NCBI GenBank assembly: GCA_003562415.1
Contig: PWUY01000306.1
Span: 1-12,251, forward strand
Length of the DNA stretch: 12,251 bases
From: Anaerolineae bacterium
GTDB lineage: Bacteria > Chloroflexota > Anaerolineae > B4-G1 > SLSP01
Direction of reading: 5' to 3'
Under the pieces are notes generated by a model. That model searched no databases, had not been told where the DNA came from, and was given only the letters and a program-made list of their open reading frames with translations. The translations under genes were made by a program, and so were the position numbers. This document shows, piece after piece, positions 1,954 to 5,918 of the stretch (position 1 is its first letter; every line of letters begins with the position of its first letter).

Positions 1954-1992
1954 GAGACTTCCGAAGTCTAAACAGCAGACTTCGGAAGTCTC
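1954..1992. repeat. Copy A of the intergenic palindromic element AGACTTC-N-GAAGTCT: a perfect 16-bp inverted repeat with a 7-nt loop, GAGACTTCCGAAGTCT aaacagc AGACTTCGGAAGTCTC
   Basis: Read directly. It lies between the tkt stop (2005) and the DUF2723 start (1940), both on the minus strand. It can form a hairpin in the transcript of either strand. No U-tract follows, so it is not a canonical intrinsic terminator. Confidence 0.7.
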
Positions 1993-2004
1993 AGGTCGTA
2001 GAAT

Positions 2005-4008
2005 TTACTCCGCCATCAACTCGAGGGCGCGGCGGACGATGTGCTCGGCGGTGAAGCCGAACTCTTGCTTGAGGCGTTGGTAGGGCGCCGAGGCCCCGAA
2101 GCGGTCGATGCCGATGACATCGCCGGATTTGCCGACGTAGCGTTCCCAACCCAGGGTGACGCCGGCCTCGATAGACAGGCGCTTGAGCACGCCTTCGGGC
2201 AGGACGCTGAGTTTGTAGAAGAGCGGCTGCTGCTCAAAAAGCTCCCAACTGGGCATACTCACCACGCGCGCGCCTACCCGCCGCTCCATGAGCAGTTTCT
2301 GGGCTTCGAGGGCGTCGGCCACTTCGGAGCCGGTGGCGATGAGGATCAGGTCAATGCGGTCGATGGGCGACTCGCTGAGGACGTAGGCCCCGCGTGCCAC
2401 GCCGTCGCGGGCTTTCTCGGCGGTCTCCGGCATAATCGGTAGGTTTTGCCGGGTGAGGATGAGGGCGGTGGGGCCAGCGTGTTCCAGCGCGATCTGCCAC
2501 GCGGCAGCGGTCTCGTTGGCGTCGGCAGGGCGCAGGACGAGCAGGCCGGGGATGGCGCGGAGCGACATCACATGCTCGACGGGTTCGTGCGTGGGGCCGT
2601 CCTCGCCCACGAAGATGGAGTCGTGCGTCCACACGTAGACCACGGGCAGCTTCATCAGCGCGGCGAGGCGCACGGACGGGCGCATGTAATCGGAGAAGAC
2701 GAGGAACGTGCCGCCGTAGGGCCGCGCGCCGCCATAGAGCGCCATCCCGTTGAGCAGGCCGCCCATCGCGTGCTCGCGCACGCCGAAGCGCAGGTTGCGC
2801 CCGGCATAGCTGCCCGCCTGGAACTCGCCCGGGCCGTTCATAAACGTCTTGTTGGAGGGGTCAAGGTCGGCGGAACCGCCGATGAGTTCGGGGAGGGCGG
2901 GGGCCAGCGCATTGATGACCTTGCCGGAGGCGGCGCGGGTCGCCATCACGCCAGTGTCGGGGGCGAAGCGCGGGAGGGCTGTCTCCCAGTTGGCGGGTAG
3001 TGTCCCCTTGAGCCGCCGCTGCAATTCGGCGGCCTCCTCCGGGAAGGCGGTCTCGTAGCGGGAGAGCAGGTCGCGCCATTTGGCCTCGGCGCGCTCGCCC
3101 TGGGGCGCGGCCAGCCGGTAGTGGGCCAGCACGTCATCCGGCACAAAGAACGGTTCGTGCGAGGGCCAGTTGAGCGCGTCTTTGGTCAGGCGGATCTCCT
3201 CCGCGCCGAGGGGCGAGCCGTGCGCGTCCGCCGTCCCCTGCTTGTTGGGGCTGCCGTAGGCGATGTGCGTCCGGCAGACGATGAGATGCGGCTGACCGGG
3301 GGCGGCTTTCGCCTGCCGGATCGCGCCGTCGATGGCATCCACGTCGTGGCCGTCGATCTCCTGAACGTGCCAGCCGTAGGCGCGGAAGCGGGCGGGGACA
3401 TCCTCGGTGAAGGTGATGGCGGTAGCGCCCTCGATAGTGATGCGGTTATCATCGTAGAAGTAGATGAGGTTGTCGAGCTTCAGATGCCCGGCGATGGAGG
3501 CGGCCTCCTGCGAGACGCCCTCCATCAAGTCGCCGTCGGAGACGATGGCGTAGATGACGTGGTCGAGCAGGGCGTGGTCGGGGCGGTTGAAGCGGGCGGC
3601 CATGTGGCGCTGCGCAATCGCCATCCCCACGCCGTTGGCGAAGCCCTGGCCGAGCGGGCCGGTGGTCGTCTCGATGCCCAGGTCGGGGTCGTGTTCCGGG
3701 TGGCCGGGCGTGCGGCTTTCCCACTGGCGGAATTGCTTGAGGTCGCTCATCAGCAGCGGATAGCCGGTGAGATAGAGCAGGCTGTAGAGCAGGGCCGAGC
3801 CGTGTCCGGCGGAGAGGATGAAGCGGTCGCGGTTGGCCCAGGTGGGATTCTTGGGATTGTGCTTCAGGTGGCGCGTCCACAGGACGTAGGCCACGTCGGC
3901 CATCCCCATCGGCAGGCCGGGGTGGCCGGAGTTGGCTTGCTGCACGGTGTCCATAGCGAGGACGCGCAGGGCGTTGATGCACCGTTGGTCGAGATCGGTT
4001 TTGGGCAT
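2005..4008 (-). CDS. tkt: transketolase
   Basis: The 667-aa ORF opens with the transketolase N-terminal region ([44 protein letters not shown]...[37 protein letters not shown]), which matches the transketolase N-terminal region as I recall it. It has the expected length. A GGAG Shine-Dalgarno motif sits 7-8 nt upstream of the ATG (minus strand: aaaaGGAGacctctATG). Confidence 0.95.
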
Positions 4009-4042
4009 AGAGGTCTCCTTTTTGGGTAAATGGGTGCCGATT

Positions 4043-4070
4043 ATGGTATGTCAAAGGCGTGAAAAGTCAA
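4043..4070 (-). promoter_or_regulatory. Candidate sigma-70-type promoter for tkt
   Basis: Minus strand reads TTGACT-16 nt-TACCAT (plus-strand agtcaa at 4065-4070, atggta at 4043-4048). The predicted start site would be about 25-30 nt upstream of the tkt ATG. This is a hexamer match only. Confidence 0.3.
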
Positions 4071-4077
4071 CGCGGGG

Positions 4078-4106
4078 TTGCATGGCGCGCGGGGGCGTGT
4101 TACAAT
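4078..4106 (+). promoter_or_regulatory. Candidate sigma-70-type promoter driving the low-GC two-gene cassette
   Basis: TTGCAT (4078-4083), a 17-nt spacer, then TACAAT (4101-4106). The predicted start site is near 4113. The resulting leader of about 134 nt would contain palindromic element copy B. Confidence 0.4.
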
Positions 4107-4118
4107 CGAGGTATACGG

Positions 4119-4576: not shown

Positions 4577-4950
4577 ACACGCTTGCCCGCTTATTGAACC
4601 AGGTGGTCAGTGCGTTACAAACCTGGCCTGGCTGTGTGAATGTGCGTGTTTTGGAAACCCAACAGTTTTCTGATGTGCAATTTGCGCTTAAAGTGCGTGC
4701 TGAGACACATTCAGGGGCGACTTTACATGTGCGCTTGTATCAAAATCGTCAACATATTGATTACGCTTACCATTTGATCCACGAGCAATGCTCACTGCGT
4801 TGGGACAACAAAGAGCATTTTCCTACACTTTCGACATATCCCCATCATTTTCATACCGCTTCCGGTGAAGTGCAAGCTTCGCCGTTGACGGGCGATCCAA
4901 ATCACGATTTACCTCTGGTATTGCGCTTGATTTCTAAAATCATTGATTGA
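4573..4950 (+). CDS. Hypothetical protein (125 aa), second gene of the low-GC cassette; His-rich C-terminal motif (RWDNKEH...YPHHFH); possibly a DUF6516/TumE-like toxin family member, on weak recall
   Basis: A complete ORF, MNTLARLLNQVVSALQTWPGCVNVRVLETQQFSDVQFALKVRAETHSGATLHVRLYQNRQHIDYAYHLIHEQCSLRWDNKEHFPTLSTYPHHFHTASGEV... Its start sits on the stop of the upstream gene through a 4-nt ATGA overlap. Its low GC is shared with the partner gene. The family assignment comes from memory of an RWDN...H...PHHxH motif and is not verified. Confidence 0.55.
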   Translation: MNTLARLLNQVVSALQTWPGCVNVRVLETQQFSDVQFALKVRAETHSGATLHVRLYQNRQHIDYAYHLIHEQCSLRWDNKEHFPTLSTYPHHFHTASGEVQASPLTGDPNHDLPLVLRLISKIID

Positions 4951-4987
4951 TGGCTGTTAAACCCCGCCAAAAGCGTTGCTCTCACAC

Positions 4988-5023
4988 AAACCCGCGCCAG
5001 GCTGCATGACCTAGCGCGGGTTT
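4988..5023. terminator. Candidate bidirectional terminator hairpin between convergent genes: AAACCCGCGC, a 16-nt loop, then GCGCGGGTTT
   Basis: A perfect 10-bp GC-rich stem at 4988-4997 and 5014-5023. It lies between the cassette stop (4950, plus strand) and the SDR stop (5050, minus strand). The loop is long and only a short T-run follows, so the call is weak. Confidence 0.3.
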
Positions 5024-5049
5024 GCGTTGGGTGGAGTTATTACGCTTTT

Positions 5050-5853
5050 CTACCCCACCCCAATCGCCGCTTCCCCGCCATCCACCGGGATGACGTCGCC
5101 GGAAATCCACGCGACGCGCGGATCGGCCAGGGCGACGATGACCTGGGCCACGTCCTCCGGCGTGGTGAGGCGGCCGGCAGGATGGTGCGTCTGCACGGCG
5201 GCGAGGATGGCTTCGTGGCCGGGGATGGCGCGCAGGGCGGGGGTGTCGCACACGCCGGGCCGCAGGCAGTTGACGGCGATGCCGCGCGGCGCGAGTTCCA
5301 GCGCGAGTTGGCGCGCGTGCGCCTCGAGCGCGGCCTTCGCCGCCGAGACCGCGCCGTAGTTGGCGGTCGCCCGCTCCGCGCCCAGGCTGCTCAGGGCGTA
5401 GATGCGGCTCCCGCGCGCGAGCAGCCCGGCGTGCGTCAAATCCTGGCTCCAGTAGACGAGGCTGTGGGCCATCACGCGCAGGGTCATGTCCATTTGTTCC
5501 TCGGAGAGGGCTTTTTCTGCGGGATCATCTGCAATGTAGGGGCGCAGGCTGCCGAAGGCCAGCGAGTGGACGAGCAAGTGGAGGGGGGTGTCGCCGAGCG
5601 CCTCCGGGAGCGCGGCGATGACACGGGCGCGGCGTCGGGCGTCGGCGGCGTTGGTGTTGAAGAAGACGGCGCGCCGGCCGGCGGCCTCCACGTCGGCGAT
5701 GACGGCCTCGGCCTGCGCGATGCTGCGGCGCGGGTCGAGGTGGACGCCGCAGATGTGCATCCCGGCGGCGGCCAGCGCGCGCGCTATCGCCGCGCCGAAC
5801 CCGCTCGACGCGCCGAGGATCAAGGCCCAACGGTTTTCCAGGGATGGGGACAT
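5050..5853 (-). CDS. SDR-family oxidoreductase, enoyl-ACP reductase (FabI/FabL)-like
   Basis: A 267-aa ORF. It has a Gly-rich N-terminus (ALILGASSGFGAAIARALAAAG) and a catalytic Y-x6-K motif in a FabI-like context (LSSLGAERATANYGAVSAAKAALEAH), followed by ...NCLRPGVCDTPA. A GGAGG Shine-Dalgarno motif lies 5 nt upstream (minus strand: taGGAGGttcctATG). Confidence 0.85.
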   Translation of the reverse strand: MSPSLENRWALILGASSGFGAAIARALAAAGMHICGVHLDPRRSIAQAEAVIADVEAAGRRAVFFNTNAADARRRARVIAALPEALGDTPLHLLVHSLAFGSLRPYIADDPAEKALSEEQMDMTLRVMAHSLVYWSQDLTHAGLLARGSRIYALSSLGAERATANYGAVSAAKAALEAHARQLALELAPRGIAVNCLRPGVCDTPALRAIPGHEAILAAVQTHHPAGRLTTPEDVAQVIVALADPRVAWISGDVIPVDGGEAAIGVG

Positions 5854-5881
5854 AGGAACCTCCTAAAAATTGGGGAAAAGT

Positions 5882-5918
5882 CCAGACTTCCGAAGTCTTC
5901 AAGACTTCGGAAGTCTGG
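5882..5918. repeat. Copy C of the AGACTTC-N-GAAGTCT element: a 37-bp near-perfect palindrome, CCAGACTTCCGAAGTCTT c AAGACTTCGGAAGTCTGG
   Basis: Read directly. The arms 5882-5899 and 5901-5918 are exact reverse complements. It lies between the MVP stop (5925) and the SDR start (5853), both on the minus strand. Confidence 0.75.

Follow-up and report, generated by a model that had tools for sequence, protein, structure and literature searches.

The closest described counterparts of the element reported here are the repetitive extragenic palindromes (REPs) of Escherichia coli, with their bacterial interspersed mosaic elements (BIMEs), and the enzyme TnpA_REP (RayT/YafM; PDB 4ER8). These are short palindromes of ~35 nt, dispersed between genes and often right past stop codons, which also occur as inverted pairs, and the gene of the small HUH/Y1 enzyme is itself flanked by repeats. 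A GTAG foot marks canonical REPs and guides cleavage in E. coli. To our knowledge, REPs and REPINs (REP doublets forming a hairpin), together with their REP-associated tyrosine transposases (RAYTs), have been studied almost solely in Proteobacteria, where we know of each repeat sequence only within one lineage. Here we describe three hairpins in a 12,251-nt stretch of DNA from an Anaerolineae bacterium (contig PWUY01000306.1 of assembly GCA_003562415.1; hereafter the window). These hairpins are very probably non-autonomous REP/REPIN-type repeats, tied to a RAYT-like HUH/Y1 transposase that is bracketed by the same hairpin elsewhere.

Two surveys frame the comparison. Di Nocera et al. (2013; PMC3733652) sorted REPs into GTAG and CGTC superfamilies, noted untagged families and REPs within open reading frames (ORFs), and reported REP families in Chloroflexi and Planctomycetes too. 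Quentin et al. (2018; PMC6006769) gave Y---NP as the signature of class-2 TnpA_Y1 enzymes.

The repeat unit in the window is a 15-nt 7-1-7 palindrome, AGACTTC-S-GAAGTCT (AGACTTCSGAAGTCT). A search of the window allowing up to 3 mismatches returned six units, at 1955, 1977, 5884 and 5902 with no mismatch, at 4117 with two and at 4166 with one. The chance expectation was 0.14, and 0 of 200 shuffles contained six or more units. The six form three C..G pairs, which bears out an earlier reading of this DNA made from the sequence alone (the sequence-only reading), where three two-unit palindromic copies in three intergenic spacers had been reported.

Copy A (1954..1992, annotated without strand, like the other two) consists of a C-centred arm (1955-1969) and a G-centred arm (1977-1991), and reads GAGACTTCCGAAGTCT-AAACAGC-AGACTTCGGAAGTCTC; its perfect stem of 16 bp encloses a loop of 7 nt, exactly as had been claimed. 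It occupies the 61-nt spacer from the stop of the transketolase gene tkt (2005) to the start of the TMEM260_N/DUF2723 gene (1943), 11 nt past the tkt stop codon. Copy C (5881..5919; arms 5884-5898 and 5902-5916) has a 3-nt loop. Its stem was said to be a perfect one of 18 bp, which holds if t5881/a5919 is counted; within 5882-5918 it is 17 bp. It lies in the 71-nt spacer from the stop of a major vault protein (MVP) gene (5925) to the start of a short-chain dehydrogenase/reductase (SDR) gene (5853), 5-6 nt past the MVP stop codon, and both A and C stand between co-directional genes. Copy B (4117..4180) is diverged, as had been noted: its arms, GGGCTTCCGAAGTCT with 2 mismatches and AGACCTCGGAAGTCT with 1, are separated by 34 nt, and it folds on the + strand with two G-U pairs and one mismatch. 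On one side of it is the tkt start (4008), on the other a low-GC pair of antitoxin-like and TumE genes (4247-4950).

Pfam and gene calls place all three copies at gene boundaries, in agreement with the sequence-only reading; the location of B in a leader is uncertain, since it lies upstream of a promoter-like site (4191-4218) that begins 10 nt beyond its end. Folding of the RNA, which had been proposed as a check, gave -33.0 kcal/mol for copy A (z ~ -6.5) and -38.2 kcal/mol for copy C (z -6.55) on the transcribed (-) strand, values equalled in 0 of 200 shuffles for either copy. A consensus scan of the window for intrinsic terminators called none of copies A, B and C. Rfam found no family in the window, giving only spurious miRNA-type matches far below threshold, and a tRNA scan of it found none.

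A scan of species-representative genomes with the pattern GACTTCCGAAGTC-N(2-32)-GACTTCGGAAGTC matched at least 120 stretches of 8 kb. The motif is thus not confined to the window, and its copies elsewhere are mostly between genes. With the same sequence, a hairpin of ~33 nt is shared by at least seven bacterial phyla and one phage. Among the matches listed, ~78 belong to Chloroflexota by record title, 26 to Planctomycetota and 4 to Ignavibacteria/Kapaibacteria, with 1 each from Armatimonadota, Terriglobia (Acidobacteriota), Moduliflexus and Poribacteria, and 8 from one unclassified metagenome-assembled genome (MAG). The GC content of the hairpin-bearing loci ranges from 0.33 to 0.71. Several matches sit in contigs of 1-10 Mb, which rules out mis-binning as the cause of the cross-phylum spread. 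An adapter or assembly artefact was also considered and dropped, because the motif is found inside megabase-scale long-read contigs at defined intergenic positions; we further take it to be unlike common sequencing adapters.

The family consensus is (c)AGACTTCCGAAGTCT-NNN-AGACTTCGGAAGTCT(g). Copy C has its commonest form: among the matches listed, 92 of 130 exact hairpins have a 3-nt loop (a gap of 5 nt between the arm cores), and 21 have a 4-nt loop (gap 6 nt). Forms with a long loop like copy B are present in other genomes, with loops of 17-68 nt. Single 15-nt units are rare, and the pair is the unit. In the flanks of 120 distinct copies, which are otherwise unrelated, only C at -1 (47%) and G at +1 (58%) are conserved. 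Several MAGs hold multiple copies; as lower bounds on copy number, one MAG carries at least 8 blocks with at least 12 copies, and a Thermoflexus MAG at least 5 blocks.

A full-text search of one paper library with a 13-mer and an 11-mer returned unrelated eukaryotic primers only, Rfam gave no real match for five related loci, and the 37-nt hairpin had no real BLAST match among cultured phages and plasmids. All-against-all clustering of 803 neighbouring ORFs showed no enriched protein family near the copies; the co-occurring regulator that the sequence-only reading had suggested looking for was accordingly not found as a recurrent family near them. Two RAYT genes first surfaced in this clustering, as a small two-member cluster.

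Some genomes of the family contain more elaborate arrangements. In one unclassified MAG, a conserved structured element of ~170 nt is present four times (L035:880-1020, L050:1730-1870, L050:5995-6135 and L067:1340-1480), with an outer stem ACGAnTTTTTCG/CGAAAAAnTCGT followed by REP arms AGACTTCCGAAGTTT/AAACTTCGGAAGTCT around a conserved core of 66-68 nt; Rfam does not recognise it. Another long and perfect hairpin, unlike these and with spurious miRNA-type Rfam matches, is found at L035:5491-5572, and suggests that this genome hosts additional palindromic repeat families. In an Ignavibacteria MAG (L044:2868-3050), units with a G centre and units with a C centre take turns at 42-nt intervals, and two alternating 27-nt spacers make an 84-nt tandem repeat.

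The two RAYT genes provide the link to a transposase. In two of the at least 120 stretches, an ORF of ~200 aa has the hairpin on either side, at a distance of 18-30 nt: L007 (3881-4486, - strand), from an Anaerolineales MAG, and L053 (4975-5571, - strand), from a Planctomycetaceae MAG. The two proteins share 42% identity. Against Pfam Y1_Tnp (cut-off 23) L053 scored 29.6 bits and L007 19.1 bits, and against NCBIfam NF047646, 'REP-associated tyrosine transposase', the two proteins scored 78.6 and 54.1 bits with the whole profile covered. The sole PDB match was 4ER8, E. coli TnpA_REP, in which the HUH motif (HYH vs HMH) and YxxxNPV were aligned; the similarity is remote (E 2.4e-4). The motifs LMPxHYHxL and (R/I)YIHxNPV, comprising the HUH and the catalytic Tyr in Y---NP, are present in 68 of 68 aligned homologues. 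There are >6000 homologous clusters, many of them named 'REP element-mobilizing transposase RayT' by JGI.

The association was assessed in metagenomic loci retrieved through the protein sequence alone (the best 80 of 522 relatives) and then searched for the DNA unit. With a RAYT at least 50% identical to that of L007 (n = 24), the unit was beside or inside the gene in 23 loci, on both sides in 14 of 18 assessable loci, and in frame within the ORF in 22. With a RAYT below 50% identity (n = 56), the corresponding counts were 13, 8 of 44 assessable, and 2. In most other loci of the latter group, the hairpins beside the RAYT differ in sequence but keep the nested-palindrome design; these variants (for example AGGTGCGWCGCACCT, GAAACCWGGTTTC, AGCTTCCSGGAAGCT, AGAAAACGGGTTTGT, GCAGCCSGGCTGC and AACCTTCGCAAGGTT) group with the RAYT tree. 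The in-frame copy lies ~8 residues past the HUH motif and encodes QTSEVxKTSEV. It tracks the local variant: in L137, AGAACTCSGAGTTCT is found in the flanks as well as in the ORF, and the encoded peptide is QNSEFLKNSEF. The family is dispersed, mostly intergenic, present across phyla and in phage, and both physically associated and co-varying with a transposase family. The suggestion of a genome-wide REP or MITE-like (miniature inverted-repeat transposable element) family is supported by these results, and can be made more precise: the family is of REP/REPIN type, and its cognate enzyme is a RAYT-like Y1 transposase.

At L007:3881-4760, the RAYT gene is set among duplicated fragments whose translated sequence resembles the C-terminal end of an HsdS-like specificity gene. 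Each fragment ends in a REP hairpin, which supplies the last codons of the ORF (..NQTSEVLKTSEV*).

A Y1/HUH enzyme whose gene is bracketed by hairpins would also suit an insertion sequence (IS) of the IS200/IS605 type, of which the hairpins would be the ends and the dispersed copies derivatives like MITEs or palindrome-associated transposable elements (PATEs), rather than a domesticated REP/RAYT system. IS200/IS605 enzymes likewise act on DNA hairpins and have non-autonomous hairpin-bearing derivatives; the longer elements of ~96 nt to 170 nt with the same arms in one MAG, and the spread over phyla and into phage, are in keeping with a mobile IS. We nevertheless consider this origin unlikely. 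The Tyr motif is the class-2 (TnpA_REP) signature Y---NP, not the Y---Q of TnpA_IS200 (PMC6006769), and the top profile and PDB matches are RAYTs. The hairpins on the two sides of the gene are one sequence, not distinct left and right ends, and a lone 33-nt hairpin is the smallest form of the element. In addition, no tnpB-like partner gene adjoins the transposase genes at L007 and L053, and the exact L053 protein was found on one contig only.

The pairing of the arms bears on whether the repeat is read as a hairpin or as a duplex. Centre bases of paired units beside RAYT genes were counted in the loci fetched by protein, and hence unbiased by the DNA search pattern. The counts were CG 59, GC 17, CC 2 and GG 0, that is, 76 complementary against 2 same-base, and thus the arms co-vary as a hairpin demands. 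An early excess of C..G over G..C pairs (148 to 4) was partly due to the search pattern, and became 59 to 17 in the protein-fetched loci. Compensatory variants include AGACTCCCGGAGTCT/AGACTCCGGGAGTCT, AGACATCC../..GGATGTCT and AGACTTCCGAAGTTT/AAACTTCGGAAGTCT. Self-complementarity within the arm was seen at 126 of 151 half-positions in a set of 22 distinct arm types, compared with 41.5 ± 5.6 (maximum 65) in shuffles. The nested dyad symmetry of a C-centred unit paired with a G-centred one, first pointed out in the window, is therefore real, and it is conserved throughout the hairpin/transposase family. It agrees with the concept of the REPIN, in which palindromic units are paired in inverted orientation.

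Symmetry of this kind had also been read as a possible operator, and the 15-bp palindrome could be a duplex site where a dimeric protein, either a transcription factor or a nucleoid protein, binds and co-regulates the neighbouring genes. The unit is a perfect 7-1-7 palindrome, the arms stay palindromic over divergent hairpins, and in one tailed phage, though only there, the half-site AGACTTC is 3.5-fold enriched outside hairpins. We hold this explanation to be extremely improbable, and the suggested co-regulation is not supported. The neighbouring genes are unrelated, and single units are rare where the pair is the rule. Half-sites, counted as a test for a protein that binds as a monomer, numbered 63 in bacterial loci against 74 expected. 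The centre-to-centre spacing varies (18, 19, 20, 22, up to ~80 bp), with loops from 3 to at least 32 nt, and some copies are in frame within coding regions. Duplex binding, moreover, needs no complementarity of the centres of the kind seen in 76 of 78 pairs.

The position of the copies relative to genes was classed for 141 copies with a crude gene caller, which reproduced the Pfam map of the window. Tandem spacers held 46 copies, convergent spacers 19 and divergent spacers 9; 21 were at locus edges, and 46 inside an ORF. Most of the last group were ~100-250 nt from the ORF end or in (spurious) ORFs of 81-118 aa. A facing stop codon lay 2-15 nt away in 30 of 84 cases, forming a cluster. The copies are mostly extragenic and favour gene 3' ends, and at least 4-6 are truly intragenic and in frame. 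In-frame copies fall within Pfam-matched regions of GcvPB (L010), MetH (L041), a type ISP restriction enzyme (L061) and a TPR/DUF1349 protein (L098). None of the three reading frames of the arms contains a stop codon.

Very stable RNA hairpins, mostly intergenic and often close behind a stop codon, might instead be host RNA elements, such as terminators, mRNA stabilisers or RNase processing sites, with an incidental link to the transposase. Several observations agree with this possibility, among them the ~12 copies between co-directional structural genes of the tailed phage, and the ordinary terminator-like hairpin found in the post-MVP position of L135, one of the relatives with an 82-85% identical MVP. 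On the (-) strand 3' of copy C, the sequence continues ACUUUUCCCCAAUUUUU-AGGAGG-N6-AUG of the SDR gene, where ACUUUUCCCCAAUUUUU is a short U-run; the statement of the sequence-only reading that none of the copies has a U-tract after it is thus not quite right for C. Across the class, U-tract enrichment was not found (T per 10 nt: 2.57 downstream where the side faces a stop codon, 2.56 on other sides), and as a class the copies are therefore not canonical terminators. Neither does an RNA role explain the identical 33-nt sequence in seven phyla at 33-71% GC, the in-frame copies in GcvPB, MetH and the type ISP enzyme, or the occurrence of copies beside and within RAYT genes in step with the RAYT clade, and Rfam gave no match. 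We judge it very improbable as an account of the family.

A local effect on mRNA may nonetheless be superimposed, and to this extent the attenuator or processing hairpins that had been proposed keep a possible secondary role, although they leave the family unexplained. Copies A and C are presumably co-transcribed with tkt and MVP, and by their predicted folds the RNA hairpins may act as 3'-exonuclease barriers or partial terminators of these transcripts. Such an effect would be a side effect, not the reason for the existence of the sequence.

Among viral contigs, C..G pairs were present in 9 stretches and a G..C pair in 1. One tailed phage (IMGVR_UViG_3300006641_000114; L127, L129, L123), whose genes include terminase, portal, major head and tape-measure, carries its ~12 hairpins in 30 kb, and nearly all of these lie between co-directional genes. 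The phage has no RAYT gene; Pfam and PHROG annotation gave ordinary phage proteins and no transposase. Tandem GACGACC-AGACTTC half-unit repeats lie beside some of the hairpins of this phage (phage relatives L125, L130).

In another viral contig (L122:9660-9830 and 12490-12620), single 15-nt units are at the tips of longer stems. The units are joined by a conserved module of ~70 nt on either side of a 767-aa CBM96/BNR-like ORF, and one unit is followed by a strong promoter-like TTGCTT-17-TATAAT. Pfam and PHROG annotate the 767-aa product as an ordinary carbohydrate-binding protein, with no transposase.

Read as a REP/REPIN-type repeat, the 15-nt palindromic unit would be the REP and the inverted pair the REPIN. 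By analogy with E. coli TnpA_REP and IS200/IS605 TnpA, the enzyme would recognise the hairpin folded by single-stranded DNA, as exposed for instance at replication forks. It would then cut and rejoin the hairpin, such that copies are seeded and maintained in trans. The copies in the window would rely on a RAYT gene elsewhere in the genome. We infer that the hairpins are mobile from this analogy; no presence/absence polymorphism between close strains was found.

Several results weigh against this reading. A 99%-identical strain keeps the same three copies. Only three copies are visible in the 18.5-kb source contig of the window's organism, which has no further copy and no RAYT gene. The L007 protein falls below the Pfam cut-off, and both RAYT-like proteins are under the NF047646 cut-off of 80. 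Neither a GTAG/GT[AG]G nor a CGTC foot is present in the flank profile of the 120 distinct copies, and since only -1 C and +1 G stand out there, the family has no such tag. Loops differ even inside one genome, where simple copying from a master element predicts otherwise. More generally, the reading leaves unexplained why one stem sequence is kept, with variable loops, while the enzyme goes down to ~40% identity.

Related genomes were compared through the MVP gene, the nearest homologues of which are from Anaerolineae MAGs. Relatives with an 82-85% identical MVP, inspected for empty sites, have 0 copies in 17-20 kb, and their synteny differs. Insertion boundaries are undefinable from these relatives, because synteny differs and no units are carried.

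Rickettsia palindromic elements share with the present family the trait that palindromic repeats can sit in frame in protein genes; they are 100-150 bp long and belong to one genus, and we know of no RAYT associated with them. The E. coli system resembles the present family in the dispersal and gene-end position of its repeats and in its enzyme, and differs in that the present repeats are without a GTAG foot and have a perfect stem with each arm palindromic, and in that the hosts are Chloroflexota, Planctomycetota and others rather than Gammaproteobacteria. The REPINs of Pseudomonas fluorescens SBW25 (Bertels & Rainey 2011), as far as they are described in PMC6006769, are likewise larger hairpins made of an inverted pair of palindromic units, with rare singlets and a cognate RAYT. 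Set against that description, the present units are of 15 nt with a 3-nt spacer, and the family is cross-phylum instead of lineage-specific, and abundant in phage. The GTAG and CGTC REPs, REPtrons and TIRtrons of PMC3733652 are also stem-loop families, some of them in frame in ORFs, with RAYTs flanked by their own repeats; the present family is untagged, and belongs with the 'untagged' palindromic repeats left uncharacterised in that survey. Among TnpA_Y1 enzymes, Y---NP places the present RAYTs with class 2, and they have the HYH variant of HuH, as in subclasses 2.1, 2.3 and 2.8 (PMC6006769). By comparison of listed motifs only, they resemble subclass 2.1 (NH[YF]H, FQ, Y[IV]HLNP); subclass 2.8, unlike the present family, is said to have GT[AG]G-footed REPs.

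The kind of system is thus known, namely REP/REPIN with RAYT, and the variant appears to be undescribed, being untagged, palindromic in its arms, cross-phylum and phage-borne. A bolder proposal, which we offer as a tentative and rather doubtful one, is that it forms an undescribed REP/RAYT branch. In such a branch an untagged palindromic-arm hairpin would be read symmetrically, perhaps by a dimeric RAYT and on either strand; its sequence would be kept unchanged in at least seven phyla, against a drift of the enzyme to ~40% identity, and the in-frame RAYT copy would feed back on enzyme expression or integrity.

The remaining features of the window are as follows. Downstream of copy A, the TMEM260_N (DUF2723) gene (3..1943, - strand; matched to PF11028 in the source contig) continues beyond the window edge. 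In a lower-GC patch of its interior it has adjacent tandem arrays, CGCAAAGG x3.4 (945-971) and TTTGCCC x4 (984-1011). The tkt gene (2005..4008, - strand; Pfam Transketolase_N, E 9e-148) is upstream of copy A on the transcribed strand. The SDR gene (5050..5853, - strand), enoyl-ACP-reductase-like, is downstream of copy C, and the bacterial MVP gene (5925..8564, - strand; Pfam Vault, MVP_shoulder) is upstream of it. The MVP is full length, with Vault repeats and the shoulder domain, and has >2500 homologues, many of them cyanobacterial and often annotated as 'colicin uptake protein'.

To the right of copy B, and adjoining it, is the toxin-antitoxin-like pair of low GC (4247..4950, + strand), which consists of an antitoxin-like ORF (4247-4576) and a TumE-family toxin ORF (4573-4950) overlapping by 4 nt. 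The pair was missed by the gene caller of the source. The GC content at 4050-5000 is 44-52%, against ~66% for the contig, and the cassette was probably acquired horizontally. At 9151-9193 and 9282-9320, in a low-GC spacer upstream of gmk, heptamer arrays AACGTGA/AACGTCA (~6 copies) face an inverted array ~90 nt off (TGACGTT x2.4, then ACGCCCC x2.3). Comparable inverted heptamer arrays (GTGGGGC/GTGAGGC) lie on either side of a REP hairpin in a viral contig (L126:800-960).

The annotation of copies A, B and C should be that of REP-type repeats instead of operators or riboswitch-like leaders, and co-regulation of tkt, MVP and the SDR gene does not follow from their presence. For the family, one repeat sequence is common to Chloroflexota, Planctomycetota, Ignavibacteria, other phyla and phage, without the GTAG guide of E. 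coli. The palindromic-arm design, kept over variants that track the transposase tree, offers a natural enzyme/substrate series for the reading of hairpins by Y1 enzymes, and the family is a test case for whether such repeats pass between phyla or are very old. If the proposal of an undescribed branch is true, a RAYT clade that by its motifs is like a subclass reported without REPs would gain its missing substrate, and phages would be the vehicle between phyla.

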